A DNA stretch of 64,000 nucleotides from a virus (taxonomy: Duplodnaviria; Heunggongvirae; Uroviricota; Caudoviricetes): IMG/VR virus record IMGVR_UViG_3300037391_000121, one strand, 5' to 3'. The position numbers and the translations under genes are program-made. Of the stretch, positions 2,829 through 59,828 are shown piece by piece; position 1 is the first letter of the stretch; every line of letters starts with the position of its first letter. The notes below the pieces were generated by a model. That model saw nothing but the letters and a program-made list of their open reading frames with translations, was not told where the DNA came from and searched no databases.

Positions 2829-2861
2829 TTTTATCTCTCTGATTAGGAGTTACATAGTCCT

Positions 2862-3650: not shown

Positions 3651-3735
3651 TCAATCTGATCCCCTATAAACGAATGACAAAGCTAAAAAACGTGAGAACT
3701 GTCAAAAACTCCATTTTTACTGGGGAAATGAGAGG

Positions 3736-3885
3736 TTACCTCATGCAGTTGCATAATTTTTCCTTGCGCGTGGTGGTCGCTGCCCGAGCGTTCGCGCAGG
3801 TAGTGCAGTGGTAGGTGACGCTGCCATCGTGGTTGTAGACACGCCATTGAGCTTGTTGACCGCACGCACAGATTACTTTTGCCAT
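3736..3885 (-). CDS. small Cys-rich (zinc-ribbon-like) protein, 49 aa; not in the ORF track
   Basis: Own translation: MAKVICACGQQAQWRVYNHDGSVTYHCTTCANARAATTTRKEKLCNCMR. CxC..HCxxC pattern. Overlaps the glycosyltransferase stop by 13 nt in another frame. Confidence 0.3.
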   Translation of the reverse strand: MAKVICACGQQAQWRVYNHDGSVTYHCTTCANARAATTTRKEKLCNCMR

Positions 3886-4520: not shown

Positions 4521-4813
4521 TAGTGTTCGATGCACTTTCTCATGATGCCCGCCGTGATCTGAGAGAGCGCGATCACGATAAAGCCCTGCACGATGTGGTC
4601 GATGAAACTTCCACCGAGGGTCTTGTAGTACGCCAGCACGAGCATCGCCGTTACCCAATGACTTACGCACCATGAGCATGACAATAACTGGTCTAAAAAT
4701 GGGAATTTCGGTGCCAACCAGTCGTGGGGTTTAGCAAAAATCTTCCCCTCGGCTACGACCAAACTGATCGCTCCGCAGGCAACGCCTAGTTCAGCCAAAA
4801 ACGTGAGATTCAT
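4520..4813 (-). CDS. small multi-pass membrane protein, 97 aa
   Basis: Two or three hydrophobic helices. Its stop overlaps the glycosyltransferase start by 1 nt. Confidence 0.45.
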   Translation of the reverse strand: MNLTFLAELGVACGAISLVVAEGKIFAKPHDWLAPKFPFLDQLLSCSWCVSHWVTAMLVLAYYKTLGGSFIDHIVQGFIVIALSQITAGIMRKCIEH

Positions 4814-4818
4814 ATTGG

Positions 4819-4848
4819 ATAATACCCAAAAGAAAAGCCGCTGGGGTT
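4819..4848 (-). terminator. Rho-independent terminator downstream of the 755-aa structural gene
   Basis: On the minus strand GCCGCTGG-CTAACC-CCAGCGGC followed by TTTTCTTTT, then a TGGGTATTAT extended -10 before the membrane-protein gene. Confidence 0.55.
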
Positions 4849-4880
4849 AGCCAGCGGCTCATTTTGTTCAACCGTTAAGC

Positions 4881-7148: not shown

Positions 7149-7239
7149 GGTTTTTCCTATGAAACTTGAAATTAAATTGGTGGACGCACCACCCCAAAGA
7201 GCCCTCTATCCTTAGAAGGAGGAAGTTGAGAAATACCTC

Positions 7240-7983
7240 TTACTGTTCGTCCCAAGCGAACGAGGCCCCTGCGGAAGCACATCTGCCCCCTGTGGTAGGC
7301 GCAAAAACGATGGTTATCACGGACGGTTCCGCAGGTGATCCCGTAAATCCAAATTGGAACTTGTAATCATTTTTATACGGACTCGCACCGATAAACCCAG
7401 CATCGAGCAACGTTCCACCCGTGTACGAAGTGGCTGAAACGTCGTAAGTCATACTAGATGCGGGGTCTACGCTCACAAAATTGGCTCCCGTTAACGTCGC
7501 ATTAAGAAGAAGCTGGAAATGGCACACTTGTCCCATACTGGAAATGTCTAAGCCTCTGAAAGTGAAGACGATATCTCCGTCAGCGTCGATTAGGGGAGTG
7601 ATGCTCAGCATGGGTAGGAGACCGCCAGTCGCGTTCTGTACCAGCGTCACCCCCGTGGTCGCGGCAAAGCGCGAGACGGGCTCCAAATCTTCGGGGTTAG
7701 GTGTATTGCTATCGAAAGTTAACAAAACGTCAAAAGCAGAAATCTGACCCGCAGGCATGGGTGCAAGAAGCGTGATGACGAGGTTTCCGAATTGGTCAAT
7801 CGCTGCATTGGCTGGAGGATCGGTGCTCGTGATGAAGGCAGAAGCGGGCACAAGTCCCACGGGCGACATAACGAGCGTGGAGCCGCTCGTGCTCTGGAAC
7901 AGGTACTCCACCGGGAAGGTGAAGACCATGGAGGTTCCATCGCCCTGCAACGAAATCGAAATGGGGACTACTTGACGTAGCAT
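7240..7983 (-). CDS. structural protein, 247 aa
   Basis: Complete ORF in the structural block; contains a TGSPAEPSV motif variant. Confidence 0.5.
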   Translation of the reverse strand: MLRQVVPISISLQGDGTSMVFTFPVEYLFQSTSGSTLVMSPVGLVPASAFITSTDPPANAAIDQFGNLVITLLAPMPAGQISAFDVLLTFDSNTPNPEDLEPVSRFAATTGVTLVQNATGGLLPMLSITPLIDADGDIVFTFRGLDISSMGQVCHFQLLLNATLTGANFVSVDPASSMTYDVSATSYTGGTLLDAGFIGASPYKNDYKFQFGFTGSPAEPSVITIVFAPTTGGRCASAGASFAWDEQ

Positions 7984-7984
7984 T

Positions 7985-9394
7985 TTATTCCTCTGTCCAC
8001 ATAACTTTGACTGTCATCAACGCACCAGCCGCCGCAACAGCCGAGGTTTCAATTCCAAACCAATCCGAAACGCCGCGCAATGTTGCCGCTTGTCCGCCGT
8101 CCGTGCCGAACTCCCACACAATGGCAGTAGGACCAACCAAACTCGAAGTGTTCGTCGTCCACTGCATGTATTGCGACTCGATGGAACCAAGGTTGAAAGC
8201 TGTGGCAACCGTGGGCAACGTCGTGTACTGATTGATAGCAACGGTTGCAGCGGGGTTGAGAGTATCGTCGGGTACTGGCGTTATAGCGTTAAACGCCCCT
8301 CCACTAATAGCTGAAAAGCGGCGTAAACGAATTAGGTTGAGGGCTGAGTTGCCCGTCGTGCAAGCCCAAGTGATCTGGATTCGGCGAACCCTTATGATCT
8401 TTGTCGCACTTCCCTGAATTGTGAAGAACGGGATAGTGGCACTAGCGAGTGGGGCGAAGGCACTCTCAGTCCCATGATAGGTCGGGATGCGCCCCGTATT
8501 GTCCACGTACAGACTGCCCGCGCTGTCGGATTGCAGCGGAAGAGTGGAACCGCTGGCTGGCGTCGGCGGAATAGCGTTGTAAGTCTCTGAGACCGTGATA
8601 TCGCCACTCGCAACGTTGACGTTGATAGCGGGTACGGCTGGCGATCCAACGTAAGTGAGAGCAGCTACGAGTTCAGCCAGATAAGCGTTGGTAATCGGAT
8701 CGTTTACGATCCAAGGCGTCGTGCATTGGGTGACGCAGATCGAGGACTCGGAGAACGTTACAGTCAGAGGATTGACGACGTTTACGTCGAGCGCGAATGT
8801 TGCGGGACTACCAACCAAACTCCCTTGCAGCCATTGGAGATCGCCGTTCGCGTCCTGTATGCCGATACCGATGGGCTGGATGCAGGTCGGTGCGACATAC
8901 GCGGGCGCAGGGCAGATGGGACTGCCAGCGGGGTAGAGACCCTGCACTTGCGGGTCAGCCCAGATCGCTGAGCAGTTACCGGGCTGTGAAATCAGCATCA
9001 TGCCCGGGTGAGTTGGGGCACTGATGCCAACATCGATAGGGCAGCCGCTCGGCGTGCAGAGATACTCCGCGCACGATGACGGCGTGCCAACGACATTGAA
9101 GTAAATCCCACCTTCGTTGTCGTAGGTGATTTCGATGTTGTTTTGGGCTATGAAATTGGCGGTGTTCTGGTCGGGTACTTTGACGCTGTTGACTTCAAGT
9201 TCGATGCAGCATGAGGATGATGGGATCGGAGGCAGGAGTGACGAGTCGATTTTCCCACAAGAATCGAGCAAAACGAGAGCGCCCGCCTGTGCCGCACAAC
9301 CGCCCGCAGTCACCGCGTCTATGCGGAACTCAGTCCGAGCGATCTGCCCGCGCTTATCTTTTCGATTTGCTAAAACTGACCATTGAGTCGCCAT
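7985..9394 (-). CDS. structural protein, 469 aa
   Basis: Contains VGSPATFALDVNVVNPLTVTFSESSICVTQCTTPWIVN, the same two motifs as the 824- and 755-aa proteins; 2-nt gap to the downstream gene. Confidence 0.55.
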   Translation of the reverse strand: MATQWSVLANRKDKRGQIARTEFRIDAVTAGGCAAQAGALVLLDSCGKIDSSLLPPIPSSSCCIELEVNSVKVPDQNTANFIAQNNIEITYDNEGGIYFNVVGTPSSCAEYLCTPSGCPIDVGISAPTHPGMMLISQPGNCSAIWADPQVQGLYPAGSPICPAPAYVAPTCIQPIGIGIQDANGDLQWLQGSLVGSPATFALDVNVVNPLTVTFSESSICVTQCTTPWIVNDPITNAYLAELVAALTYVGSPAVPAINVNVASGDITVSETYNAIPPTPASGSTLPLQSDSAGSLYVDNTGRIPTYHGTESAFAPLASATIPFFTIQGSATKIIRVRRIQITWACTTGNSALNLIRLRRFSAISGGAFNAITPVPDDTLNPAATVAINQYTTLPTVATAFNLGSIESQYMQWTTNTSSLVGPTAIVWEFGTDGGQAATLRGVSDWFGIETSAVAAAGALMTVKVMWTEE

Positions 9395-9406
9395 TCAATC
9401 ATCCCG

Positions 9407-10399
9407 TTACTTCTCGAACAGGGCCTCCATATCCAGCATGAACTTCGACGCACCAACCCCCTCCATTTGACGGGGTGCTTGTGAGGGTGAGACGTTCGAT
9501 TCAGCGTAAAATAGCCAGACCTTACGGGTGCTGGGGTCAATAATCTTGCCGTGGAGTTCGGTGGTGCTGTAGGCTACAAGTGTTGCCGTGCCAGTGTCGG
9601 GTGACGTTTCGCAGGCGTAGGTGGGGTTCGGGTAGCTCCCGCTCGCGTTCCCCGTGTTGGTCTCGTTCACGCCCATAGCGTTGACGAGAGTCAGAGTCGT
9701 AGCGGTGCTCGCCGTAGCTAAGAAAGTGCCATTATTTGTGGGATTACTGAACCCACTGATCGTGAAGTAGTACCCCGCGTAGGCGTTCCCAGCCCCACCC
9801 GTGATCGTGCCAATGTAGACGGTCGAAGACGGCGGGCTGCCCGTGGCGGCATCGACCTGTGTCAGGGCAAAGTTGAAGGGGGACGTTGTGGTAAACTGTT
9901 CATCGGTCGCTGACAGGACTGTGACGGTCTGACCGTTTAGGAACGGTTCATTCATCCCACTAAGGGTCACTGTTGCGCCAGTGGCGAAAGAGTTGCCACC
10001 CACGATGGTCACAACGTTGTTCACAATCGACGAAGCGGTGATGTCGGCTGTGAGCTTGTAATTGGTGAAGGTGACGCTGGTGGGAGTTACGGTCGCTACT
10101 CTAAAAACTTCGGCGTTGAGGAAGAAGGCGTTGATGAATCCGTCGAGGATTACGATCATGCCGGGTTTGAGGACACCGAAGCTGTTCCCACCGCTGAGCG
10201 TAAGCACGCCGCCAGCGATGGAGACGCCTGTGACATCTTCGACAAGATATACGGGGAGGTTGGATTCGATGTACTGGAGGCTATTGACCTCAACTATGGT
10301 CTCGCGTCCATCGGGCTGCCCAAGTGTGCGGTCTGGTTTGTAAATCCAGAATGCGGCGTGGATCGTCGTATTTAGCTGGAACCCGTACTTGTGCGCCAT
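9407..10399 (-). CDS. structural protein (capsid- or tail-associated), ~330 aa
   Basis: ORF 9407..10432. Start chosen at MAHKYGF (10399) because it is preceded by CGGAGCAAA; Gly/Thr-rich. Confidence 0.5.
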   Translation of the reverse strand: MAHKYGFQLNTTIHAAFWIYKPDRTLGQPDGRETIVEVNSLQYIESNLPVYLVEDVTGVSIAGGVLTLSGGNSFGVLKPGMIVILDGFINAFFLNAEVFRVATVTPTSVTFTNYKLTADITASSIVNNVVTIVGGNSFATGATVTLSGMNEPFLNGQTVTVLSATDEQFTTTSPFNFALTQVDAATGSPPSSTVYIGTITGGAGNAYAGYYFTISGFSNPTNNGTFLATASTATTLTLVNAMGVNETNTGNASGSYPNPTYACETSPDTGTATLVAYSTTELHGKIIDPSTRKVWLFYAESNVSPSQAPRQMEGVGASKFMLDMEALFEK

Positions 10400-10593
10400 T
10401 TTGCTCCGAGTTTTAGCTGAACACAGAGACACGCCAACGCACGGGCGCAGACGTACTACGACTACTGTTCATGCTCAGAAGTTGCCTTGTGGTTGGGGTC
10501 AACTCCTATCTATGTGTCTGGAAATAGGTTTTCATTTCGCGGACAAAATTGCGAAAATCGAGAGCAGGCCCAAAGTCGCGGTGTTCGTAAACC

Positions 10594-14564: not shown

Positions 14565-14621
14565 CTACAGAGAAGCTTTACGGTCGCCCGCAAGGGCTCC
14601 AAAACAATTTCAGAACCTCAC

Positions 14622-14707
14622 GATGGTGTTAGGTTGACGGTTACTTCATTCAACTGAATTCGCCAATGGCGAACTGGGGCTTGCCCCTCTCTGTCTCCGC
14701 TTGTTCC
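14622..14707 (+). ncRNA. degenerate Y-RNA-like element (copy 0)
   Basis: GATGGTGTTAGGTTGACGGTTACTTCA ... TCCGCTTGTTCC resembles the conserved 5' and 3' arms of the better copies. Internal hairpins TTCGCC-AATG-GCGAA and GGGGC-TTG-CCCC. Confidence 0.35.
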
Positions 14708-14710
14708 TCG

Positions 14711-14880
14711 TGGGTTCAATTTGCAAAAGGAGTTGCCCGGGATCATACTGCCGCCTTCGGGCGGGTGTCCCTGATACGTGCAATATTCCTTTCGACGGGT
14801 GGGAAACGTGCCCCGCAGACTGCCAGCCTCGGCTGGGTGTACCTGCGAGGTCCACCCACCGTCGTCCGATTTTAATGTGC
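14711..14880 (+). ncRNA. structured non-coding region (possible additional small RNA or processing signals)
   Basis: Hairpins CCGCC-TTCG-GGCGG, long-range stem CGACGGGTGG...CCACCGTCG, T-loop-like GTGGGTTCAATT, ends GATTTTA just before the next RNA. Confidence 0.3.
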
Positions 14881-14881
14881 T

Positions 14882-15004
14882 GTGGTGTTAGGAAACGGAT
14901 ACTTCTCCTGAAAAGAGGGGGACGTGGGTTCGAGTCCCACTGCCCGTCGCGAGACGGGTATAGCTCAGTGGCAGAGCACCAACCGTGCCGTTCCGCTTGT
15001 TCCC
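14882..15004 (+). ncRNA. YrlA-like Y RNA with circularly permuted tRNA-like module (copy 1)
   Basis: 5' arm GTGGTGTTAGGAAACGGATACTTCT; T-arm GTGGG-TTCGAGT-CCCAC (14924-14940); 8-bp hairpin CCCGTC-GCGA-GACGGG; D-arm TAGCTCAGTGGCAGAGCA; 3' arm CCGTTCCGCTTGTTCCC. Directly upstream of rsr. Confidence 0.6.
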
Positions 15005-15156
15005 AGCACAGTTTTCGCGAAGGTGCCCTTGAGAGGGGCTTAAAGAAGCGTGAGCCGCTTCGCCATCGGGGTAAGGCCGCTACCAAGGGAGGTAGCGGGG
15101 CAACGTGGGCACGCACTCCCACCCTTATCATTGATATTTTGAAGGAGGATACCAGC

Positions 15157-16671
15157 ATGGCATCCGTGAACGCAGTAACTCGACGTATTGGTCCGCAGGT
15201 GCACACCGCACCCGGAGCCACGGCAGCACGCATCAACAAGGCGCTTCAGCTTCAGCGTCTCTTGAACGCTTGCATGTTGTGGGAAGACAATTTCTACATC
15301 GACGGCGAGACCGTCGCTGGCTTGATCCAGAAGCTCGTCCACGAGACTTCCGCAGAGAAGTGTGCGGAACTCGCGGTCAAGGCTCGTAATGAGCAGAAGC
15401 TTCGCCACGCACCGTTGCTCGTAGTGCGTGAGATGGCTCGTGCGTCCGCCGACCACAAGGCACTCGTGGCGGATACGCTGTTCGCCGTCATTCAGCGTCC
15501 TGATGAGATCGCGGAGTTTCTCGCGATTTACTGGAAGGACGGGAAGCAGCCGATCTCCGCTCAGGTGAAGAAGGGCCTCGCTCGCGTGTACAACAAGTTC
15601 TCCGAGTACCAGCTTGCGAAGTGGAACAAGGACAAGGACATCAAGCTGCGTGACGTGGCTTTCTTGACGCACGCAAAGCCGAAGGACAAGGCTCAGGGTC
15701 TTCTGTTGGCGCAATTGGTCAACAAGGATCGCGTGCCCGTGGCAACCCGTGGCGGAAAGTACGACAAGAAGAAGGCCGCTGGGTTCCCGGTCGCGAAGAC
15801 CTACAAGACGCTGGCGAAGAATTTCGTCGGTCTGGCAACGCCCGACACTTGGGAGGTTGCACTCTCTGGTGGGGCAGGCAAGAAGGAGACGTTCACCCGT
15901 ATGCTCGAAGAGGGCACGCTGGGTGCAATCGCCGTCCTGAAGAACCTCCGCAACATGACTCAGGCGGGCGTGTCGAACAGCGTCATCAAGAGCGGTTTGG
16001 CAACCATGAAGACTGAGCGTGTGCTCCCGTTCCGTTTCATCACGGCGGCGAAATATGCCCCGGGATTTGAGTCGGAACTTGAGCAGGCGATGTTCCGTTG
16101 CCTCGCGGGTGCCCCGAAGTTGCTGGGTCGCACTGGTGTTGTGATCGACGTTTCTGGGTCCATGAACGGCAAAGTCTCGGGTAAGTCTGAGCTTGGCCGT
16201 ATCGATGCTGCGGCCTGCATCGCAATGTTGCTTCGTGAGGTTTGCGAGGACGTTGTGATCTACTGCACGGCAGGTAACGACGGCACCCGTATCCACAAGA
16301 CGGAGATGATCCCGTCTCGTCGTGGGTTTGCGTTGCGTGATCTCATCAACCAGTCCGCAGGTCGTTTGGGCGGCGGCGGTATCTTCTTGACGCAGATGAT
16401 GGACTACGTTCGCAAGCATGAGCAGGGCGACTTCGAGCGTATGATCGTCATCACGGATGAGCAGGACTGTGAGCGTGATCCCGCTCGTGCGGCATCGCGT
16501 GCAAACACCTTTGGTGAGCACAACTACCTCATAAACATTGCCAATGAGAAGAACGGAATTGGCTACCGCAAGTGGCATCACATTGATGGATTCAGCGAAG
16601 CCGTCGTCACCTACATCTTCGCGGAAGAGGGCCAGTCCTTCGATTCCGCCGATGAAGACTCACTTAACTAA
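15157..16671 (+). CDS. rsr: Ro60-like protein (Rsr): TROVE domain plus vWA domain
   Basis: ATG after GAAGGAGGA. vWA MIDAS motif VIDVSGSMNG. Size (504 aa) and N-terminal region consistent with a TROVE domain. The tracked ORF start at 14701 is an over-extension across the ncRNA cluster. Confidence 0.75.
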   Translation: MASVNAVTRRIGPQVHTAPGATAARINKALQLQRLLNACMLWEDNFYIDGETVAGLIQKLVHETSAEKCAELAVKARNEQKLRHAPLLVVREMARASADHKALVADTLFAVIQRPDEIAEFLAIYWKDGKQPISAQVKKGLARVYNKFSEYQLAKWNKDKDIKLRDVAFLTHAKPKDKAQGLLLAQLVNKDRVPVATRGGKYDKKKAAGFPVAKTYKTLAKNFVGLATPDTWEVALSGGAGKKETFTRMLEEGTLGAIAVLKNLRNMTQAGVSNSVIKSGLATMKTERVLPFRFITAAKYAPGFESELEQAMFRCLAGAPKLLGRTGVVIDVSGSMNGKVSGKSELGRIDAAACIAMLLREVCEDVVIYCTAGNDGTRIHKTEMIPSRRGFALRDLINQSAGRLGGGGIFLTQMMDYVRKHEQGDFERMIVITDEQDCERDPARAASRANTFGEHNYLINIANEKNGIGYRKWHHIDGFSEAVVTYIFAEEGQSFDSADEDSLN

Positions 16672-18934: not shown

Positions 18935-18948
18935 GCTTGTGTGGGTGG

Positions 18949-19020
18949 TGATTGGAAACGGGTACTTCTTCCTTTAACGAAAGATGCCGAAAGGCTACCC
19001 CGTCCCGCTTGTTCCCCCAC
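18949..19020 (+). ncRNA. YrlB-like short Y RNA without a tRNA-like module (copy 3)
   Basis: GTGGTGATTGGAAACGGGTACTTCT ... hairpin CCTTT..AAAGG ... CCGTCCCGCTTGTTCCC. Confidence 0.5.
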
Positions 19021-19037
19021 CATGTTTCGCCGAGTGG

Positions 19038-19161
19038 TGTTAGGAAACGGGTACTTCTCTCGCCTTGGGAGAGTAGCTCAGCGGTAGAGCGCCTGACTTG
19101 AAATCAGGAGGCCGTTGGTTCGACTCCAACCTCAACTACTCCGTCCCGCTTGTTCCCTCGG
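19038..19161 (+). ncRNA. YrlA-like Y RNA with colinear tRNA-like module (copy 2)
   Basis: 5' arm GTGGTGTTAGGAAACGGGTACTTCT; hairpin CTCTC-GCCTTGG-GAGAG; D-arm TAGCTCAGCGGTAGAGCG; anticodon-like arm CCTGA-CTTGAAA-TCAGG; T-arm GTTGG-TTCGACT-CCAAC; 3' arm CCGTCCCGCTTGTTCCC. The acceptor stem does not pair and there is no CCA. Confidence 0.6.
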
Positions 19162-19180
19162 CATATTTTCTGGAGCTTCA

Positions 19181-22560: not shown

Positions 22561-22811
22561 AATTCTTCGTTGAGAACCAGCAATGGGTTATCGCCACAAT
22601 CGTTTGGCTCGGTATGATGGGCATTATTTGCCTCTTTGCGGAGGCTAACAGCCAGAGAGCTACCAAAGTGAAACGCATCGTCGGCTGCGCCGTAGTCACC
22701 CTGTGGATATGGGGAGTGACGATTTCTGGGCTGTATGCCAACCTGCAACCGCCGCCTATTCAACAACATATCAGCATCCCCGCCGATTACCACCCATGCG
22801 GGAAAACCTAG
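22557..22811 (+). CDS. small membrane protein, 84 aa
   Basis: Two hydrophobic helices. Confidence 0.45.
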   Translation: MKFFVENQQWVIATIVWLGMMGIICLFAEANSQRATKVKRIVGCAVVTLWIWGVTISGLYANLQPPPIQQHISIPADYHPCGKT

Positions 22812-22843
22812 CGATTTTCCCATTTTTCTTGGTATAATAGGGC
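22807..22843 (+). promoter_or_regulatory. conserved promoter element, copy 2
   Basis: CCTAGCGATTTTCCCATTTTTCTTGGTATAATAGGGC then GGAGGA then ATG at 22857. Confidence 0.6.
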
Positions 22844-23256: not shown

Positions 23257-23580
23257 TTGTCCGTGGACACATTCCGAGATTCGCCCGTGGGAGATACGGA
23301 AGGCGGTCGCGGAGAAAAGGCTTCGACGCGAGATAATACGCGGAAACAGAACATCGAGCGGATCGCTTACTTCGTAGTGCGGGGCTGGCGTGATCCAATC
23401 GGAATTGACGTAGGGGTGCCGGGGTTGAGTTTCCACGAGCCAGCCTTGACGGATGGATACCACCGACTATCGGCGGCAATGTTTCGGAAAGACTCTCATA
23501 TCCGAGCAATCGTGGACGGCGACTTAAAGTACGCCTTCGAGCTGTTTGGGGTTAATTGTGAGGAGAAGTATGGCAGATAA
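23257..23580 (+). CDS. ParB/Srx-like nuclease-domain protein
   Basis: LTDGYHRLSAAMF matches the DGxHR ParB/sulfiredoxin-fold motif. Start uncertain; it overlaps the alternative ORF 22985..23377. Confidence 0.4.
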   Translation: MSVDTFRDSPVGDTEGGRGEKASTRDNTRKQNIERIAYFVVRGWRDPIGIDVGVPGLSFHEPALTDGYHRLSAAMFRKDSHIRAIVDGDLKYAFELFGVNCEEKYGR

Positions 23581-24166
23581 ATTGATCGTGCGGTATTGGG
23601 ATGATCCAGCCCTGTCCACCCTTTGCGATGCGGTGGAGGACAACGAGTTCGGCCCGCAGTTGGGCGAGTTCGCGGCCTCGTTGCTGATAGCAATGGGTGA
23701 CAGGAACGGCGTTGGGCTGGCGGCTCCGCAGGTGGGCATCACCAAACGGATTTTTGCCATGTGCTTCCCCGATGACGAGGAATTCAACCGTAAGTGGGCT
23801 GCCGCTGGCGTTGCGCCAGTAACCGAAGTGAGGAAGGCAATCGTCGTGTGTAATCCGACACTGGTATTTGAGGGCAAAACGGTGTATGCTCGTGAGGGTT
23901 GCCTGTCGCTGCCCGGGATTCATGAACAAGTCTCCCGAGCCGAGAAAGTGACAATGCAGTATCGGCAGACGGACGGCGTAGCGAAAGAGATCGTGCTGAC
24001 GGACATCAATGCCCGAGTCGCGCAGCATGAGTTCGATCACTTGAACGGCATCATGTTCTTCAACTACACGGACAAACGTCCGCAATACGGAGCACGGATG
24101 TCTAAGCAGGTGAGCAAGCAAGTCCTGCGGGATTGGGAAAAGGAAAGGGCAAAACGTGGCATCTAA
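23570..24166 (+). CDS. def: peptide deformylase
   Basis: All three PDF motifs present: GVGLAAPQVG, EGCLSLPG, QHEFDHLNG. GAGGAG SD before MADKLIV. Confidence 0.8.
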   Translation: MADKLIVRYWDDPALSTLCDAVEDNEFGPQLGEFAASLLIAMGDRNGVGLAAPQVGITKRIFAMCFPDDEEFNRKWAAAGVAPVTEVRKAIVVCNPTLVFEGKTVYAREGCLSLPGIHEQVSRAEKVTMQYRQTDGVAKEIVLTDINARVAQHEFDHLNGIMFFNYTDKRPQYGARMSKQVSKQVLRDWEKERAKRGI

Positions 24167-24808: not shown

Positions 24809-24968
24809 AATGATTATCGCCGACATGGAAGCTGACTTGGAGTACGGCGAAAGCTTCCCCAACAGCATGAGCAGTCGTGGCGAGGAAGCCATGGAAGACG
24901 GGAAAGTCCAGCTTTTGAGAAAGTATCTGCCCAAGTTGCGGGCGTTAAGGGATCAGAATGGCGAATAA
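24792..24968 (+). CDS. hypothetical acidic protein
   Basis: Internal Met (MATTLEM) overlapping the upstream stop. Confidence 0.35.
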   Translation: MATTLEMIIADMEADLEYGESFPNSMSSRGEEAMEDGKVQLLRKYLPKLRALRDQNGE

Positions 24969-26067
24969 GGGATTCACGGAGACTCGATACGATTACTCGG
25001 CAGGGCGTGACCACGCTCCTGAGCTAACCGTGTGCGTCGGTATCAGTGGTTCTGGGAAGAGCACCGAGGTCATGCAGCGGGTGAAGCGGTCGCAGGGTAA
25101 GACCGTCCGTCTGAACCGTGACAAGATGCGTGAGATGCTGTTCTGCGGTGCGGATTGGAACAAGCACAACGAGAATTTCGTCCGCACTTGGCAGATGGAG
25201 GGGGCTCGTATTGCACTCCAGTCGGGCAAGAACGTGGTCATCGACGACACGAACTGCATCCGCAACACGCGGCAGAAGTGGGAAGAGTTTGCGGTCGAGC
25301 AGAAGGTTAAGCTGTGCTTCTTGGTTATGGACGTTCCGTTGAAGGAGTGTGTTGAGCGGGACATTGCACGCGGAGTTCCGTGCCCGACCTGTGGGACGCC
25401 AAAGGGCGTCATGGTTGGCGAGGAGATCATCCGCCGCCAGTACAAGGATTTGACGAGTTTCAATATGAGCAACCGAGACATGACGCCTACGTCGCCGACG
25501 CGAGCTTGGATGGAGCGTCAGGCCCTCTTGAAGGGCGGGTTCGTGCCTCGTCTTGTGGGGCGTCCGTGGGTGTTGTTTGACATGGACGGCACCGTAGCAG
25601 ATCACCGTGGGCAGCGGAACCCTTACGAGGAGCACAAGGTCACGCTGGACAACTGCTACGAGGTCGTTGCGGAGTGGATTCGGCAGTTGGCTCCGTCGCA
25701 CAACCTTTGCGCGGTTTCAGGCCGTCATGATTTTTGTGGGGATTTGACGTGTGAGTGGTTGGAGGGATACAACGTTCCCTTCGATCATATCCTGATGCGC
25801 TACAACGGGGACAACCGCCCCGACGTGGTGGTCAAGCAGGAAATCCTCAACGAGTTGATCGCCGTCATCGGGAAGGAGAACATCGCATTCGTTCTCGATG
25901 ACCGCCCTCAGGTAGTGAAAATGTGGAGGGCGAATGGGATCAAGGTTTACCCGGTACGCGGTGAGCCGATCCACAGGGCGGGGTGCTCGAACGGCTACGC
26001 GAAGCCGAAGGAAGGCGTGTACATCGGCGGTTTCTGCGGTGAGTGTGGTGCGTTGGAGAACTTCTAG
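24958..26067 (+). CDS. polynucleotide 5'-kinase/3'-phosphatase (T4 Pnkp-like)
   Basis: N-terminal P-loop GISGSGKST. C-terminal HAD motif VLFDMDGTV (DxDGT). Domain order kinase then phosphatase, as in T4 PseT. Confidence 0.7.
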   Translation: MANKGFTETRYDYSAGRDHAPELTVCVGISGSGKSTEVMQRVKRSQGKTVRLNRDKMREMLFCGADWNKHNENFVRTWQMEGARIALQSGKNVVIDDTNCIRNTRQKWEEFAVEQKVKLCFLVMDVPLKECVERDIARGVPCPTCGTPKGVMVGEEIIRRQYKDLTSFNMSNRDMTPTSPTRAWMERQALLKGGFVPRLVGRPWVLFDMDGTVADHRGQRNPYEEHKVTLDNCYEVVAEWIRQLAPSHNLCAVSGRHDFCGDLTCEWLEGYNVPFDHILMRYNGDNRPDVVVKQEILNELIAVIGKENIAFVLDDRPQVVKMWRANGIKVYPVRGEPIHRAGCSNGYAKPKEGVYIGGFCGECGALENF

Positions 26068-26187
26068 TGAGACGACCAGTGCCGGGGTATGTCGAACGGG
26101 CTTGCTTTCGGATGAGGGACAACAGAGACCTTATCCAATGGCTGACCGAGGCGTACCCCGACACGATGCGTTGGATTTCGTACACGA

Positions 26188-26412
26188 TTGACACGACCTT
26201 GGAGAACATGCGGAGCAGGGAAATTCAGAAGGCGCAGGAGGCCGACCGTGGACAAGCAACTCGTAGCTGATCTCAGGAAAGAGTATACGGAATTGGTCGA
26301 AGTGCTCGAAGGCGATGGCTTCTGCATTCGTCGCGAGTGCATGTGCGATCATGCGAAGCCCGTGGTGAAGATGAACGATCTCATCACGAAGTTGGAGCAG
26401 GAGGCAAACTGA
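26188..26412 (+). CDS. hypothetical protein
   Basis: ORF; the true start may be the internal GTG. Confidence 0.3.
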   Translation: MTRPWRTCGAGKFRRRRRPTVDKQLVADLRKEYTELVEVLEGDGFCIRRECMCDHAKPVVKMNDLITKLEQEAN

Positions 26413-26804
26413 TGGGGTACATGATCCTCAAGCTGAATGATGGTAAGCGAGATTTCTACCTCGAATGGTCAACGCACACTGATGCCCCGCGAACCTTCGG
26501 CATGACGCTAAATGAATTCACCGCGTTCTACCGTGACGAGTATGGTCGCAGTAGCATGTTGGAGTTTCAGGAGCGGATGGAACGGGTCGAAGCGAAAGGG
26601 ACCTCCGACTACTGCGAGGAGTCCGTGGATGAAACCATCGCCCGCAATCACGCAGGCAAGGATGGCACCTGCCTGACGAAGGAACAGATCATCAAGGTTT
26701 ACTGCCACGAACGTCAGAAGCCCGTAACGGAAGAGGGTGTTGATCCGTGGGCTGAGGAAAAGGCCGCAGAAGCGGCAATGGAAGCACGCAGAGGAGTAAT
26801 CTGA
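26412..26804 (+). CDS. hypothetical protein
   Basis: Internal Met (MGYMILKL) of ORF 26337, right after the upstream stop. Confidence 0.4.
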   Translation: MGYMILKLNDGKRDFYLEWSTHTDAPRTFGMTLNEFTAFYRDEYGRSSMLEFQERMERVEAKGTSDYCEESVDETIARNHAGKDGTCLTKEQIIKVYCHERQKPVTEEGVDPWAEEKAAEAAMEARRGVI

Positions 26805-27109
26805 TGTTGTGTTGGGGCGGTAATTCCAAGGAAACGTCGATCACTGTCGCGATGCAGCCGAACCTGTTTCAGCGAGGCGACAAGATTCGGGTGAGCGGAT
26901 TTGTGAACAGTAACAACGGTTTGTTCGTAGTCAGGCGTGCGAAGGGCACGAGCTACATCGTACAGCCTGCCGACTGGTGGGATTACGTGACGCACTACGC
27001 CTCGAAGTTCTGGAACGAAGTGCAGTGGAAGTTCTGGGGCGTGGTCAACAATTTGGAGGATTTGTGGAACCGACTGTTGGAGAGCCTAAAGCGCGTAAGA
27101 AGCAGATGA
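26804..27109 (+). CDS. hypothetical protein, 101 aa
   Basis: ORF with overlapping start. Confidence 0.4.
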   Translation: MLCWGGNSKETSITVAMQPNLFQRGDKIRVSGFVNSNNGLFVVRRAKGTSYIVQPADWWDYVTHYASKFWNEVQWKFWGVVNNLEDLWNRLLESLKRVRSR

Positions 27110-27255
27110 CACGGCACGATTGGTACATCGTGCTCACCCTGCTCATGTTTGCGAACGCGGCATTGTTCGACGGTAAACGCGGCTGGGGCATGGGCCTGAC
27201 GCTCGTCGCGATCTTGATTGTGGTTCTGGTGGACGGTTTCGGTGTTAAATTATGA
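27106..27255 (+). CDS. small membrane protein
   Basis: MTRHDWYIVLTLLMF...; internal Met of ORF 26977. Confidence 0.35.
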   Translation: MTRHDWYIVLTLLMFANAALFDGKRGWGMGLTLVAILIVVLVDGFGVKL

Positions 27256-28391
27256 CGGTTTTCCTCAAGGACGTTTTGCCTGTCGATTTGCTGAACAAGC
27301 ATATCGAGGACGGCGTAATCCGTAAGCAGGTCCACCCCGACTATCCCGACCAGCTTTACATCTTGAACTATTCCGAGCAGGCTCAGTTCGGTCGCATCTG
27401 GGATGCGGCAACCAACGTGTGCCGTGGATTGGTCTGCGCCATTACGCCTGACGGCGACGTTGTGATTGCACGCGGATTCAACAAGTTCCACAATTACAAC
27501 ACGGAGTACCTGCCCGAGACGATGGACGCAAACTTGCCGCCCGTCACACCGCTGGCGACCCAGAAGTTGGATGGGTCGATGGGGCTCCCGTACTATTGGG
27601 ACGGCAAGTGGTGGGTTGCAACTCGCGGCTCGTTCGCTTCGGATCAGGCAAAATGGGCGACCGAGTGGCTCCGTCACAACTATCCGCTCTTCCACTCGGG
27701 TTCGTTCTCCACGCCCGTGTGCGAGGTAATCTACAAGGAGAACCGCATCGTCGTTGATTACGACTTTGAGGGACTCGTGTTGCTTGGCTTCGTGGACTTG
27801 GCGACTGGTTACGAACTCGGTCGGCTGTTCTGCGAGGATTGGGCATTCGCAAAGCAGTTCCCTATCGTCAAGAAGTTCGATAAGACGTTGGCGGAATGTG
27901 CTGCCGAGAACAACTTGAACGAAGAGGGCTACGTCTTGACTTACGACAAGGGGCGTGATGTAGCGCCCTTGAAGATCAAGGTGAAGTTCGCGGACTATGT
28001 GCGCTTGCACCGCATCTTGACTGGCTTGAATCCCAAGGCGATCTGGGAGATGTTGGAGGCCGGACAGAACGAGGCAATCGACACCATCATCGCCGACCCG
28101 ACGATGCCTGCGCCGTTCATCGCGTGGTTTTCGGGATGGGTGGAGCAGTTCCGTGCTCGGCATCGGGAGATGGAGCGGAAGGCACTGTACGTGTTCGACC
28201 GCCGCCCGAAGAACGATCTCGGCGATTTGGGTCCTGCCCTGCACCGCAAGTCGGTCGCTTTGTACTTCCAGAAGACGCCCGAGTTGTGCTCGATCCTGTT
28301 CGCGTTGCTGGACGGCAAGAACCATGCGTCCATCATTTGGGATCGCCTCAAGCCCAAGGCGACGGACACTTTCAAGAAGGACGGGGAGTGA
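27252..28391 (+). CDS. RNA ligase (T4 Rnl1-like, ATP-dependent)
   Basis: Nucleotidyltransferase motif I QKLDGSMG (KxDG lysine) at about residue 104. ATGA overlap upstream. Confidence 0.65.
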   Translation: MTVFLKDVLPVDLLNKHIEDGVIRKQVHPDYPDQLYILNYSEQAQFGRIWDAATNVCRGLVCAITPDGDVVIARGFNKFHNYNTEYLPETMDANLPPVTPLATQKLDGSMGLPYYWDGKWWVATRGSFASDQAKWATEWLRHNYPLFHSGSFSTPVCEVIYKENRIVVDYDFEGLVLLGFVDLATGYELGRLFCEDWAFAKQFPIVKKFDKTLAECAAENNLNEEGYVLTYDKGRDVAPLKIKVKFADYVRLHRILTGLNPKAIWEMLEAGQNEAIDTIIADPTMPAPFIAWFSGWVEQFRARHREMERKALYVFDRRPKNDLGDLGPALHRKSVALYFQKTPELCSILFALLDGKNHASIIWDRLKPKATDTFKKDGE

Positions 28392-28845
28392 GTGCTTCAC
28401 CCTGCTCAGCACGCTTTATCCAGTTGTGATTTGCACAGAGCAGTTGGTAGTTCTTACCCCCGTCCGCTAGAACTTTTTTCAAGTAGGTTTCTTGTGCCAG
28501 ACCTCTTAACTCTTTACAACCGCCTCCGAATTTATGGTCAATCTGGAGAGCCCTCGGGTCTGTCCATCCGCAACCCGGCCAAGCACATTGATTCCCCAGC
28601 ATTGCGAACACGGCTTCCTTACGCCGCGCTCGTGTCTGTCTGCTGTAGCCGTTATATCGTTCTCGATTGTTTTTCTTGGTTGCGGCTGTTACGGCAATGC
28701 ATTTTTCACGGTGGTTTTTGTAATGCTCGGCGCTTTTCTGCCGCTGTATTTGTAAACAGGTTTCACAGCAGGTTTTTCCGCCTGCTGTTGGATTCGGGCA
28801 ACGTGCACATTTCATGAAATAACCCCCTCTATAATAGGGGTTCAT
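28372..28845 (-). mobile_element. free-standing HNH homing endonuclease, opposite strand, inserted between the RNA ligase and CCA genes
   Basis: CAWPGCGW..LQIDH..LLCANHNW HNH motif plus N-terminal Cys cluster. The only minus-strand gene in the plus block. Overlaps the ligase 3' end by 20 nt. Confidence 0.65.
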
Positions 28846-28886
28846 AGCATAAAGATTTGTAAGTAGTTACAAAATAAGGGGTTATT

Positions 28887-28924
28887 CCTAAAGTTTTCGG
28901 GCGTTTCCTTGGTATAATAGGGGT
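28887..28924 (+). promoter_or_regulatory. conserved promoter element, copy 3
   Basis: CCTAAAGTTTTCGGGCGTTTCCTTGGTATAATAGGGGT then ATG at 28927. Confidence 0.55.
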
Positions 28925-28926
28925 AT

Positions 28927-29184
28927 ATGAGACGAAGCTTTCTGGATTCGATGCTGTCATTCGTGGGTCGGTGTACCCACGACCGTTATTCATTTCCCCA
29001 GACGATCAAGGCAGGCAAGGACAAGGGCAAGACCACGGTCTCCTGCTTGGACTGCGGCAAGACGCTGCCGTATGATTGGGCGGGGTTGGGCGCGGAGGAA
29101 GAAATCAAACCCCCCAAGATGACGGCACCGAGGGTTATCGTGATCGAGAAGACGGGAACGTATCTCATAGGAGAACAAAAGTGA
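28927..29184 (+). CDS. small zinc-finger protein, 85 aa
   Basis: CTHDRY..CLDCGKTLPYDW. Confidence 0.45.
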   Translation: MRRSFLDSMLSFVGRCTHDRYSFPQTIKAGKDKGKTTVSCLDCGKTLPYDWAGLGAEEEIKPPKMTAPRVIVIEKTGTYLIGEQK

Positions 29185-30500
29185 ACAGATTCGCCGCAAC
29201 CACAGTCATCCGAGAATTGCAGAGGAACGGCTTTGAAGCTTTCCTCGTAGGCGGCTGCGTGCGCGACATGATCCTCGGCAATGAGCCGAAGGATTTCGAC
29301 GTGACCACGAATGCTCTCCCTGAACAGGTGCAGGCGATCTTCGCCAAGACCTTGCCAGTCGGCGTCAGCTTCGGTGTGGTTATCGTTGTGGTGGATGTTG
29401 ACGGCAAGGGCGAGCAGATCGAAGTCGCTACCTACCGCAAGGACGGCGTGTACTCCGATGGTCGGCGTCCCGACACGGTTGAGTACGGCAAGACTGCACG
29501 GGAAGACGTGGAACGTCGCGACTTCACCATGAACGGCCTGCTCCTGACGACGCCGATGGATTTCCCCGTCAAAGGTGTCACCGCCGCAGACCACGACATG
29601 TTCGACGGCTACGGCATTGTTGACTTTGTTGGTGGACGGGAAGACATCAAGGCTCGGCTTATCCGCTGCATCGGTGACCCCAACAAGCGGTTCACGGAAG
29701 ATGCCCTGCGGATGATGAGGGCCGTGCGCTTCGCCGCGAAACTCGGCTTCGACATCGAGCCCGAGACGTTGAAGGCGATCACCGTCAATGCACCGAAGAT
29801 GGTGAACATCAGCCGCGAGCGAGTGGCGATGGAACTGTTCAAGTTGCTGACGGCTCCATTCCCTCTTAAGGGGCTCGTGCCCCTGTTCGCCTCGGGGTTG
29901 GCGGCACACGTGTTCCCGAAGGAATTTATGGACAACGTGCTGCTTGGCCGCACGCTGCGGCGATTCACGGAATTTCCTACGTCGAATCCAACATTGGCGA
30001 TGGCAATGTTTCTCAGCGATACGTCGAATCCTAAGACGCCGATGACGATGGCCTTGAGTTTGAAGCTGAGCAACGACGAGAAAACACAGATCGTGACGGC
30101 GCTGCTGTATGTCAGTGCGATCCCGAAGGCGCGGGAGTACGCCAGCACGCCCGCTCATTTTATTCGGACGATGCGAGTTCCGGGAATCGAATTGGGTCTG
30201 GAGATTGCCATCCAGAACGAAATGCTCGGCATAACCAACGTCGGCAATGAGGCTCTGATGTCGATTGTTAACGACTACCGGGGTCTGACGCCTGAGGAAA
30301 TTTACCCGAAGCCGTTGGTGACGGGGGACGATTTGATCGCCGCTGGCTACACGCCGAGCAAGGTGTTCCGCGACGTTCTGTACGTCATCGAAACGGAACA
30401 GTTGGACGGCAAGCTGACCACTCACGAGCAGGCCCTACAGCGTGCGATTGTGCTCATGACTGGCATCTGTACCGAACGTGTTGCTGAGGGCGGTGCGTGA
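29181..30500 (+). CDS. cca: tRNA nucleotidyltransferase (CCA-adding enzyme / poly(A) polymerase family)
   Basis: Head-domain motif FLVGGCVRDMILGNEPKDFDVTT (GGxVRD...DxD). GTG start after AGGAGAA with a GTGA overlap; in frame with ORF 29076. Confidence 0.7.
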   Translation: MNRFAATTVIRELQRNGFEAFLVGGCVRDMILGNEPKDFDVTTNALPEQVQAIFAKTLPVGVSFGVVIVVVDVDGKGEQIEVATYRKDGVYSDGRRPDTVEYGKTAREDVERRDFTMNGLLLTTPMDFPVKGVTAADHDMFDGYGIVDFVGGREDIKARLIRCIGDPNKRFTEDALRMMRAVRFAAKLGFDIEPETLKAITVNAPKMVNISRERVAMELFKLLTAPFPLKGLVPLFASGLAAHVFPKEFMDNVLLGRTLRRFTEFPTSNPTLAMAMFLSDTSNPKTPMTMALSLKLSNDEKTQIVTALLYVSAIPKAREYASTPAHFIRTMRVPGIELGLEIAIQNEMLGITNVGNEALMSIVNDYRGLTPEEIYPKPLVTGDDLIAAGYTPSKVFRDVLYVIETEQLDGKLTTHEQALQRAIVLMTGICTERVAEGGA

Positions 30501-31108
30501 GTACCGCCCCCATTTTCCTGACGGGCACCCCTCCCTCCCGTTTCAGGATGGTCTACTTCCTGCTCGACCCGACGAGCTACAAGGAAACTAACAAGCTGGA
30601 GCAGCTAGTCAGGCAGACTTTCCCCCACGTCAGATTTTTGGAACTGTACCTTCCGCCGTACAGAGTTTACGAGAAGCAAGTAGAACTTTGGGCGTCCGAT
30701 CTGCTCCCACTCCTAATGCCAAACATTTTGCTGGTGGGCGTTGGCCGTGCGGGTACTGCGGCCTGCTGGCTGCAAGAACACTTCCCCGATCTGAATCTGT
30801 CGGTCATGGCTATAAACGCTCCGACCGAGGAGCCTGATTTCACAGTCGAGCGACGGCACGCGAATCGAGTGGCTCTCTTTTCCAAGGACTATCCGCAGAT
30901 CAAGGGCTATACCCAGAATTGGTCATGGATGGCCGAATTTTCATTTGACGTAGGCTGGCTCCAGCATGGTATTCTTTCTGAGAGTGGTGCGAATCTTTGC
31001 AAGTATTCGGTGCTGTACTTCATCACCGCGTACCTCATGCAACCGGACATCAGGGAATCGTGTTCCAAAGTCATTGGGGACGGAGAGTACGAGTCATTCT
31101 TGCCATGA
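30497..31108 (+). CDS. hypothetical protein, 203 aa
   Basis: ORF with overlapping start. Confidence 0.45.
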   Translation: MSTAPIFLTGTPPSRFRMVYFLLDPTSYKETNKLEQLVRQTFPHVRFLELYLPPYRVYEKQVELWASDLLPLLMPNILLVGVGRAGTAACWLQEHFPDLNLSVMAINAPTEEPDFTVERRHANRVALFSKDYPQIKGYTQNWSWMAEFSFDVGWLQHGILSESGANLCKYSVLYFITAYLMQPDIRESCSKVIGDGEYESFLP

Positions 31109-32717: not shown

Positions 32718-32920
32718 TCCGAGCCCTAAAGATCAGCGGCATCCTCCTGACAGTGCTTTTCTGCGTAATCTGCGTGGTGATCGGTTGTCTTGCCTTTGTA
32801 CTTGGGGCGATCAACGACCAGCCCGACGCCTCGGTCTATGGCTTTATCATTGCCGCGTTCTGCGGTTACATGATATTATGTCTCTTTGACCCCCTCAACA
32901 AGGTGATCGATGAAAAATAA
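32702..32920 (+). CDS. small membrane protein, 72 aa
   Basis: Two TM helices. Confidence 0.4.
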   Translation: MVSAIIRALKISGILLTVLFCVICVVIGCLAFVLGAINDQPDASVYGFIIAAFCGYMILCLFDPLNKVIDEK

Positions 32921-33650
32921 GTGGCCCAACGAACTGTTGATTTGCAGGCACGGCGAATCAGAGGCCAACGTCCGCAAGAATGCCGCCAAAGCTAGGGGCG
33001 AGGAGCCCGCGTGGACTGGCGTACTTCGGGATATGGACTCTCCGCTGACAGGATTGGGGCTGCGGCAGGCTTACTCCCTCGGTGTACATCTTCGCCAGCT
33101 ATATCCCGCCACTCTGGGCTACAAGTTCCACAATGTTTGCAAGGGTGGGATGCTGGAATACATCGTCACATCGCCCTACCTTCGCTCGCGACAGACTACG
33201 GCTGAGATCATTCGGGGGCTGGACTACACGCCTGAGGTTGTGGTTGATGAGCGTCTCCGCGAGATTGATTTTGGCATCATGGACGGCATTGACCGAAAGA
33301 AGTTCCGCGAGCTTTTCCCAACCGAGGCTGACCGTCGTGACCGTGACGGTAAATATTGGTATCGCCCGCCCGGTGGCGAGAACCGTCCTGATTGCCGCCT
33401 ACGAGTCCACAGTTTCCTTGACACCCTGAATCGTGATTATGTGGACACCAAGACCTTAATTTCGTGCCATAGCGTCATCGTGCTTGCTTTCCGCAGTCTG
33501 CTCGAACGATGGGGCGAAGCAGAGTATATGCAAGTGGACAAGGAAGACGACGTTAAGAATTGTGGGCTGACCATCTACAAGCGAGAAGACAGGCGGCGGC
33601 TCAAGTTGCAGGAGTACAATACCGTGGCGTTGCCACTAGGGAGTTACTAA
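32910..33650 (+). CDS. histidine phosphatase (phosphoglycerate-mutase family)
   Basis: RHGESEAN catalytic motif near the N-terminus. Confidence 0.6.
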   Translation: MKNKWPNELLICRHGESEANVRKNAAKARGEEPAWTGVLRDMDSPLTGLGLRQAYSLGVHLRQLYPATLGYKFHNVCKGGMLEYIVTSPYLRSRQTTAEIIRGLDYTPEVVVDERLREIDFGIMDGIDRKKFRELFPTEADRRDRDGKYWYRPPGGENRPDCRLRVHSFLDTLNRDYVDTKTLISCHSVIVLAFRSLLERWGEAEYMQVDKEDDVKNCGLTIYKREDRRRLKLQEYNTVALPLGSY

Positions 33651-56623: not shown

Positions 56624-56658
56624 AACTGACTTTTTAGCCCATAGTAGAGGGCACGTTC

Positions 56659-59226: not shown

Positions 59227-59229
59227 TGT

Positions 59230-59774: not shown

Positions 59775-59828
59775 ACTACGGTATCTCTATTGTAGACGGG
59801 CCACTGAGCCTGTCGGAAAAGAGATAAC

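Follow-up and report, generated by a model that had tools for sequence, protein, structure and literature searches.

Reversal of the PrrC cleavage of tRNA-Lys in bacteriophage T4 is, to our knowledge, the only experimentally established role of a phage polynucleotide kinase-phosphatase (Pnkp, PseT in T4) acting together with RNA ligase 1 (Rnl1, gp63). Here, we describe a locus in which members of the same two families are encoded beside a CCA-type nucleotidyltransferase. The window under study is a stretch of 64,000 nucleotides from the virus record IMGVR_UViG_3300037391_000121 (Caudoviricetes), and the three genes, all on its plus strand, lie at 24958–26067 (Pnkp), 27252–28391 (Rnl1-family RNA ligase) and 29181–30500 (nucleotidyltransferase). 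The three proteins belong to these families, keep intact active sites and are encoded in a phage context in a conserved gene order. We think that they provide a large soil phage with T4-style healing and sealing of RNA and with repair of tRNA 3' ends, which would likely protect the tRNA pool from host defences that target tRNAs, and we give this reading a probability of roughly 0.6. The locus is an RNA-repair kit of an already well-described phage type; what is new in it is that Pnkp bears a His/Cys3 knuckle specific to its clade and that an open reading frame (ORF) of 203 codons, ORF203, is translationally coupled to the CCA gene.

When compared to the T4 system, the Pnkp of the window has the same domain order, all the known catalytic residues of both T4 enzymes are kept, and the predicted folds match the T4 structures 1ltq and 2c5u best or near-best, even if the identity of the proteins is about 20–30%. 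The T4 genes are dispersed, whereas here Pnkp and Rnl1 are about 1.2 kb apart in one apparent operon. T4 Pnkp carries neither the His/Cys3 knuckle nor a CxxC insertion that is found in the window protein, and the pathway differs in that a CCA enzyme is linked to it here.

Other described systems share parts of this arrangement. In jumbo phages, RNA ligases of the Rnl1, Rnl2 and RtcB types, PNK-HAD fusion proteins, CCA-adding enzymes and ROT/TROVE proteins with a tRNA-like partner have been read as counter-defence RNA repair (Iyer, Anantharaman, Krishnan, Burroughs and Aravind 2021, Viruses 13:63, PMC7824862). The gene combination of the window and the counter-defence reading of it are the same as in that survey, so this reading is plausible but standard, and not new. 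The survey did not take in the present lineage, an uncultured one from soil whose relatives reach 463 kb; specific to the clade of the window are the fixed order peptide deformylase (Pdf)–Pnkp–Rnl1–CCA–ORF203–histidine phosphatase and the probable zinc knuckle of Pnkp. Cultured actinophages also have Rnl1 and Pnkp adjacent, often within tRNA arrays. In the cassettes of Streptomyces phage Annadreamy and Arthrobacter phage Bauer, for instance, the RNA ligase and the polynucleotide kinase adjoin on the same strand, as here, but the ligase identity is at most 37%, the order is reversed with the ligase first, and no CCA enzyme is nearby. Among bacterial systems, the Pnkp1 of the Pnkp1-Rnl3-Hen1 set of Capnocytophaga gingivalis (4xrp) is the best solved-structure match to the Pnkp of the window; in contrast to that set, the ligase here is of the Rnl1 and not the Rnl3 type, and no Hen1 methyltransferase was found among the scanned neighbour genes. 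Lastly, the head and neck of the CCA-adding enzyme of Geobacillus stearothermophilus (1miv) align with the nucleotidyltransferase (2.9e-55, the best solved match), whose motifs A–D are intact, whereas a 19-residue insertion follows motif C, the body and tail are divergent, and the protein is encoded by a phage, with its gene in translational coupling to two small ORFs.

The Pnkp gene encodes a T4-type 5'-kinase/3'-phosphatase of 369 residues, recognized by Pfam, by sequence matches to solved structures in the PDB and by Foldseek searches with an AlphaFold2 model. The kinase P-loop GISGSGKST occupies residues 28–36 (nucleotides 25039–25065) and the phosphatase motif VLFDMDGTV, of the DxDxT type, residues 205–213 (25570–25596). 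The kinase comes before the phosphatase, with AAA_33 (4e-21) at residues 23–139 and HAD_PNKP (5e-33) at residues 205–333, the reverse of the order in mammalian PNKP; the PHROGs match is to polynucleotide kinase (4e-73). The best matches to solved sequences are Capnocytophaga Pnkp1 (4xrp, 2.6e-24) and T4 Pnkp (1ltq, 1.8e-23), and the same two structures head the Foldseek results for the model, which has a mean confidence score (pLDDT) of 86. When superposed on separate T4 domains, the phosphatase reaches a TM score of 0.83 with a root-mean-square deviation of 1.7 (5uj0) and the kinase a TM score of 0.79. Equivalents of T4 K15/S16, D35, R38, R122/R126, D165/D167, R213 and D277/D278 are all there and do not vary across 33 aligned homologues. 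In the kinase, NRDKMR (D55, R58) and R134/R138 align to the T4 catalytic residues; in the phosphatase, DMDGT (D208, D210), SGR (R256) and DDR (D314, D315) are the invariant elements.

Two Cys-containing insertions distinguish this enzyme. One, right before the conserved C-terminal ALExF, holds H339, C343, C360 and C363 (nucleotides 25972–26046), which are at least 90% conserved and probably form a zinc knuckle. The other, also specific to the clade, is a CxxC pair inserted into the kinase (C142, C145; 25381–25392) and carried by about half of the homologues. Both are missing from the more distant homologues and from the Pnkps of cultured phages. The gene start is relevant too: the gene call of the JGI begins at an internal Met (25072) and removes the kinase P-loop, whereas the ATG at 24958 is the better start because it is preceded by an AAGGGA ribosome-binding site and an identical protein of 369 residues is on record.

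The ligase gene begins with an ATG that shares an ATGA overlap with the stop of the upstream ORF, and it encodes an ATP-dependent RNA ligase of 379 residues, assigned by Pfam, PHROG 562, a profile match to T4 Rnl1 and AlphaFold2/Foldseek. The adenylylation motif KLDGSMG lies at residues 105–111 (27564–27584). Pfam RNA_lig_T4_1 is matched at 2e-14, with 54.4 bits against a gathering threshold of 28.3, and PHROG 562, of T4 gp63-type RNA ligases, at full length (1.2e-50); close relatives carry the source name 'T4 RnlA family RNA ligase'. A single-sequence phmmer search of the PDB returned no ligase, just chance matches to capping enzymes, while a profile of 29 homologues gave T4 Rnl1 (2c5u) as top match at 4.6e-25. 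In this alignment, the invariant R58, K78, F79, K105, G108 and R125 correspond to T4 R54, K75, F76/F77, K99, G102 and K119, and the invariant E158, E225, G226, K243 and K245, which represent motifs III, IV and V, to T4 E159, E227, G228, K240 and K242. The essential residues of T4 Rnl1 are thus matched throughout, with Arg in place of K119; D107 of motif I (K105/D107/G108) is likewise invariant among the 29 homologues, and the N-terminal residues R54, K75 and F77 that are specific to Rnl1 have their counterparts in R58, K78 and F79.

The AlphaFold2 model of the ligase (pLDDT 93) consists of a nucleotidyltransferase domain followed by a C-terminal domain of seven helices (residues 247–365); in T4 Rnl1, the all-alpha C-terminal domain is the one that confers tRNA specificity. 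Foldseek ranked T4 Rnl1 first over the full length (2c5u, 1.8e-16, 382 columns), followed by fungal Trl1 ligase domains, archaeal Rnl3, Naegleria Rnl5 and T4 Rnl2. DNA ligases appeared only from rank 39 downwards, with E values above 1e-4, and a DNA-ligase identity was therefore ruled out. The protein falls in the Rnl1/Trl1 clade of RNA ligases and, by its sequence, is to be placed as a divergent Rnl1 branch.

The third protein, a class II tRNA nucleotidyltransferase of 439 residues, was identified from three Pfam domains (PolyA_pol 7e-31, PolyA_pol_RNAbd 2e-15 and tRNA_NucTran2_2 1e-6), the 1miv structure and the NCBIfam model NF009814, besides the PHROGs tRNA nucleotidyltransferase family (8e-57). 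Motif A, GGCVRD...DFD, spans nucleotides 29250–29300, with GGCVRD at 29250–29267 and DFDVTT at 29292–29309, and motif D, EDALR, lies at 29697–29711. GGCVRD, DFD, RRDFTMN and EDALR, which correspond to motifs A–D with the EDxxR nucleotide template, align with the Geobacillus enzyme, and the flexible-loop region is also present in this alignment. Among the NCBIfam models, the CCA tRNA nucleotidyltransferase NF009814 is the best, at full length and with 262.8 bits, ahead of PcnB with 184.5 bits. The protein is most likely a CCA-adding enzyme, and a poly(A) polymerase appears less likely from the same comparisons. The most likely start of translation is GTG 29181, in a GTGA overlap with the upstream stop codon, and probably not TTG 29076; the JGI product, too, has 439 residues.

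Small ORFs flank the CCA gene on both sides. The upstream one (28927–29184, plus strand) encodes 85 residues that include Cys and His, reminiscent of a Zn ribbon, and has homologues before the CCA gene in three related loci (L002, L013 and L088). ORF203 (30497–31108, plus strand) has a GTG start and the CCA gene ends within it, again as GTGA. It is found directly 3' of the CCA gene wherever the clade has one, is kept in eight related loci and has 20 database homologues in all, mostly of 203 residues. Nothing significant was found for it in Pfam, PHROG, NCBIfam or the PDB. The non-significant hints (E 0.16 and 0.03) are to the UPF0227/YqiA esterase fold (4fle), with the nucleophile serine replaced, so that ORF203 may have an alpha/beta-hydrolase fold lacking this serine. 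A hairpin at 30488–30509 was considered as a terminator and probably is none, as ORF203 starts within it.

The initial annotation of this DNA was made from the letters alone, and its assignment of Pnkp, RNA ligase and nucleotidyltransferase is upheld by Pfam, PHROGs, PDB and NCBIfam searches and, for Pnkp and the ligase, by fold searches; the Pfam and PHROGs matches are much stronger than chance would give. Every motif that it quoted was found in its place in the ORFs of the window, and the three genes, said to lie within 6 kb, span 5,543 bp on the plus strand. Profile searches placed neither the ligase among the DNA ligases nor the nucleotidyltransferase in an unrelated family. The peptide deformylase, histidine phosphatase and Ro60/TROVE genes that it named as neighbours are all present as well.

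Upstream of Pnkp, the Pdf gene (23570–24166, plus strand, with an alternative start at 23546) matches Pfam Pep_deformylase at 4.7e-38, scores above the NCBIfam cutoff and is kept at 49–90% identity in eight related loci. Five small ORFs fill the interval from Pnkp to Rnl1 (26067–27255, plus strand, from gene calls), at 26067–26270, 26248–26412, 26421–26804, 26804–27109 and 27106–27255, the last of them membrane-like. They overlap or are tightly packed, their content varies among relatives, and the two of the five that were searched have no match in Pfam or PHROG. Downstream of Rnl1, an HNH-type endonuclease gene (28372–28845, minus strand; weak PHROG HNH matches at 1.6e-4 and 5.4e-4) runs towards Rnl1 and shares 20 nucleotides with the 3' end of the ligase gene. 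None of 11 related loci has a homologue of it, the slot between Rnl1 and CCA being filled there by different genes, and it has probably inserted as a mobile (homing) element at a variable hot spot. The histidine phosphatase of branch 1 (32910–33650, plus strand; Pfam His_Phos_1, 3.8e-26) carries the RHG catalytic motif as RHGES at residues 13–17 and is 62–86% identical in six related loci.

A recurrent motif suggests how these genes are transcribed. The promoter-like site at 22833–22843 (plus strand), recognized by this recurrence, has an extended -10 element TGGTATAATAGGGC and an upstream CCTAGCGATTTT box; a terminator-like hairpin (22800–22821) precedes it and a DUF6166 gene follows it. The motif TATAATAGGG[GC] was observed four times in the window against 0.22 expected by chance. 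In the form CCTAtCGATTT-N9-11-TTTTTnGGTATAATAG(G), it occurs on the plus strand at 10652, 22833, 35824 and 41062, and a weaker copy, TGGTATAATAGGGG, at 28913–28923 lies 3 nucleotides upstream of the start of the Zn-ribbon ORF. These sites probably mark the starts of early or middle transcription units of the phage, read by a sigma-70-type polymerase. The 22833 site would then be the probable start of a unit with Pdf, Pnkp and Rnl1, and the 28913 site that of the CCA unit. Between Pnkp and Rnl1, each gene adjoins or overlaps the next, and therefore the two enzymes are probably made from one early-type transcript, whereas the CCA gene and its two coupled small ORFs probably belong to the next unit.

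The conservation of the region was followed among relatives. The backbone of the clade consists of DUF6166, Pdf, Pnkp, Rnl1, CCA, ORF203, histidine phosphatase and an Anti-TRAP-like zinc protein, and the order from Pdf to histidine phosphatase is kept at 56–60% ligase identity, while the small genes in between turn over. For linkage counts, hidden Markov models of the window proteins and their homologues were run over 10 kb on each side of the Rnl1 homologue in 80 viral loci of IMG/VR and 80 genome loci of GTDB. Pnkp was near Rnl1 in 49 of the 80 viral loci, all on the same strand and with a median gap of 4 bp, and in 65 of the 80 genomic loci, 57 of these within 500 bp (for example, in Actinoplanes, Dactylosporangium and Saprospiraceae; loci L089–L167). 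Rnl1-Pnkp is a general, tightly linked two-gene cassette of phages and bacteria. The CCA enzyme was near Rnl1 in seven viral loci and one genomic locus, and the clade of the window accounts for six of the seven and for the genomic one. The initial annotation had proposed a single RNA-repair module; the conserved neighbourhood stands, and a single working module is not supported, as there are at least two apparent transcription units and the linkage of CCA to Rnl1 is rare.

In the mechanism that we favour, Pnkp would act on the ends that metal-independent ribonucleases leave behind, taking off the 2',3'-cyclic or 3'-phosphate and adding a phosphate to the 5'-OH, and Rnl1, adenylylated at Lys105, would reseal the break, the paradigm substrate being tRNA anticodon loops. 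The class II nucleotidyltransferase would rebuild lost or damaged CCA ends of tRNAs or tRNA-like RNAs. Pnkp and Rnl1 would be expressed from one plus-strand operon under the sigma-70-like extended -10 promoter at 22833, and the CCA gene from the following unit at 28913, by translational coupling to the two small ORFs. The role of the enzymes would most likely be to preserve a working tRNA pool in the infected cell against host defences that cut tRNAs, as the T4 pair does against PrrC. The RNA substrates, a cooperation among the three enzymes and a purpose against host defences are inferred; the last of these, which the initial annotation put as a countermeasure to abortive-infection RNases, is an analogy with T4 Pnkp and Rnl1 versus PrrC.

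Several points weigh against this reading. The scores for two of the enzymes are below the NCBIfam equivalog cutoffs: the 262.8 bits of the nucleotidyltransferase compare with 290 for NF009814, and the ligase obtains 33.7 bits from TIGR02308, for which the cutoff is 242. The three enzymes are probably not on one transcript, since the HNH gene, which is convergent, and the promoter-like site at 28913 come in between. The proximity of CCA to Rnl1 may reflect the genome-wide synteny of kin phages and not functional coupling, and the Rnl1-Pnkp pair is equally common on bacterial chromosomes, which makes it a device for RNA repair in general; by itself, the pair does not mark anti-defence. Furthermore, ARAGORN found no tRNAs in 10 kb around the module in eight loci of the clade, and the association with tRNA arrays seen in other phages is thereby removed in this one.

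The alternative that survives best, possible but clearly less probable than the T4-style repair reading, is that the CCA enzyme works separately, maturing or maintaining CCA-less phage tRNAs or tRNA-like RNAs, and that its nearness to Pnkp and Rnl1 is early-gene synteny. It draws on the near confinement of CCA-Rnl1 linkage to one clade and on the position of the CCA gene in the other apparent transcription unit. There are, besides, 335 phage records with CCA enzymes, many from large phages. A candidate substrate also exists in the window, where a tRNA-like gene (19067–19139, plus strand, 66.6 bits) is the only tRNA certified by Rfam; ARAGORN calls it tRNA-Ser UGA, yet it has no long variable arm, shows two mismatches in the acceptor stem and does not encode CCA, with ACUCCG after the acceptor stem. 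Other ARAGORN calls of tRNA-Phe, at 14875–14948 and 4450–4545, were discarded for want of Rfam support. The explanation is weakened by the fact that a CCA-adding enzyme is normally supplied by the host, and by the order Rnl1–(variable slot)–CCA being kept down to 47–52% CCA identity while the neighbours turn over. Separate action on such RNAs would, moreover, be compatible with a repair role too.

Somewhat less probable still is general RNA housekeeping, in which breaks of any source (stress, host toxins that are not phage-triggered or phage nucleases) would be mended during the long infection by a very large phage, maybe with a Ro60/Y-RNA-like system. This view does not exclude the previous one. 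It is in line with the abundance of the Rnl1-Pnkp pair in bacterial loci, as common there as in phages, and with the presence of Ro60 within 10 kb of Rnl1 in 11 of the 80 viral and 5 of the 80 genomic loci. Bacterial Ro60 and YrlA belong to an RNA repair operon that also has RtcB (PMC7790460). A few of the GTDB loci have the order Ro60-Rnl1-Pnkp, as in Fibrella arboris (L091), which suggests a cellular Ro60-linked healing-and-sealing cassette. On the other side, reversal of PrrC damage is the only role established for these two enzymes in a phage, from what is known of T4, and promoters of the early type would fit a pre-emptive function.

The Ro60/Y-RNA cluster announced by the initial annotation stands as a gene with four Y-like units, while every match to the YrlA model is below the gathering score. 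The TROVE/Ro60 gene lies at 15157–16671 (plus strand). The units, on the same strand, lie at 14617–14714, 14876–15010, 18941–19022 and 19029–19163, two just upstream of Ro60 and two about 2.3 kb downstream. They share a 5' box GGUGUUAGGAAACGG and a 3' box CCGCUUGUUCC, and their outer stems differ in sequence with the pairing always kept. A scan of the window at Rfam gathering thresholds gave no Y RNA and the one tRNA only. Below threshold, YrlA (RF02553) matches 14917–14980 in the second unit, unit B, with 29.4 bits against a gathering score of 69, about 180 nucleotides upstream of the Ro60 start. Similar matches of 28–51 bits occur directly upstream of Ro60 in five of six related phage loci (L171–L175), with a model that cross-hits tandem tRNAs at similar scores. 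A strict regular expression for the stem motifs of the window found nothing in 87 other loci. The tRNA-like gene sits inside the fourth unit, unit D, between the shared boxes, and may be the tRNA-like module of a Y RNA and not a decoding tRNA.

Two further proposals deserve less credit than those above. It is doubtful that Pdf, Pnkp, Rnl1, CCA, ORF203 and histidine phosphatase form one multi-lesion tRNA restoration system, in which the zinc-knuckle Pnkp would recognize RNA or a partner, ORF203 would be an accessory subunit, and damage to both anticodon loop and acceptor end would be mended. Very improbable are non-RNA roles, in which Pnkp and the ligase process DNA ends or the ligase is a tail-fibre attachment factor like T4 gp63: T4 Pnkp does also work on the ends of DNA, and T4 gp63 attaches tail fibres by a second activity that is not catalytic and after which PHROG 562 is annotated, but the catalytic residues of the ligase are all invariant across the family, its closest folds are RNA ligases with DNA ligases far down the Foldseek list, and its gene sits among early-type and not structural genes.

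As for the origin of the DNA, 21 kb of the window are identical to a JGI metagenome contig of soil type, and we take the window as part of a large or huge uncultured soil phage. When the region was compared as DNA with 50,697 phage records, four short matches of 70–97 nucleotides came out and no more, and hence there is no close cultured relative. The ligase has 1,157 homologous matches, many on contigs of 160–460 kb and one on a contig of 894 kb; viral contigs of 84–463 kb in IMG/VR carry ligases 56–81% identical, and the sole close copy in GTDB is on a 185-kb contig of a Terriglobia metagenome-assembled genome (L088). The block DUF6166-Pdf-Pnkp-Rnl1-CCA-histidine phosphatase is also present in this genome, on three IMG/VR contigs of 332–463 kb (L009, L011 and L013) and on the JGI contig 3300035696 Ga0374055_0000025 (L004); the latter, with its 894,233 bp, may be a chromosome piece bearing a prophage, the product of misassembly or a phage of exceptional size. 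Among cultured phages, the CCA enzyme is matched best, at 33% identity, in Tunturiibacter phage Tunturi_5 (L168, PP885688.1), a 309-kb acidobacterial jumbo phage; instead of the Rnl1/Pnkp pair, it has a gene with the annotation 'tRNA splicing ligase' at a distance of about 9 kb. The window phage may infect Acidobacteriota, the Terriglobia contig being the only hint of a host. Searches of the minus-strand ORFs with Pfam, PHROG and tblastn gave no match identifying a capsid or terminase, so the phage assignment rests on the IMG/VR relatives and on gene content. A minus-strand block at 354–10432 consists of large ORFs, mostly without a family match. They encode, among others, a glycosyltransferase of family 2 and a protein of 755 residues whose ice-binding-like domain matches at 3.6e-35, and a virion structural protein is matched once, weakly; presumably, these are structural or host-recognition genes.

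The HD phosphohydrolases that had been counted with the repair genes reduce to one HD-domain gene (55958–56623, plus strand). It exists as predicted, but we see nothing to tie it to RNA repair; it lies 25 kb from the repair genes among genes of nucleotide metabolism, adjoining a dual-specificity phosphatase. That the deformylase and the histidine phosphatase form part of an RNA damage-control arsenal, as the initial annotation proposed, is likewise not supported. The plus-strand region 55282–63698 is a cluster for nucleotide metabolism or modification, with this phosphatase (of weak similarity to Swiss-Army-Knife PTPs), the HD phosphohydrolase, a nucleoside 2-deoxyribosyltransferase-like protein, NifU, NUDIX, ThyX and two deaminases of the cytidine/dCMP type, one of them MafB19-like.

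The current picture of phage RNA repair is left unchanged by this locus. The Pnkp with its probable zinc knuckle and the CCA-coupled ORF203 are concrete additions to the known pathway that can be tested. T4 Pnkp and T4 Rnl1 are workhorses of the laboratory, and, if our reading is true, the locus supplies divergent enzymes that are about 20–30% identical to them. Should the multi-lesion system be real, the hosts of this lineage would attack both the 3' end and the anticodon loop of tRNAs. And if the anti-defence reading is right, huge soil phages would meet tRNA cleavage as a relevant defence in their hosts, which have been little studied.

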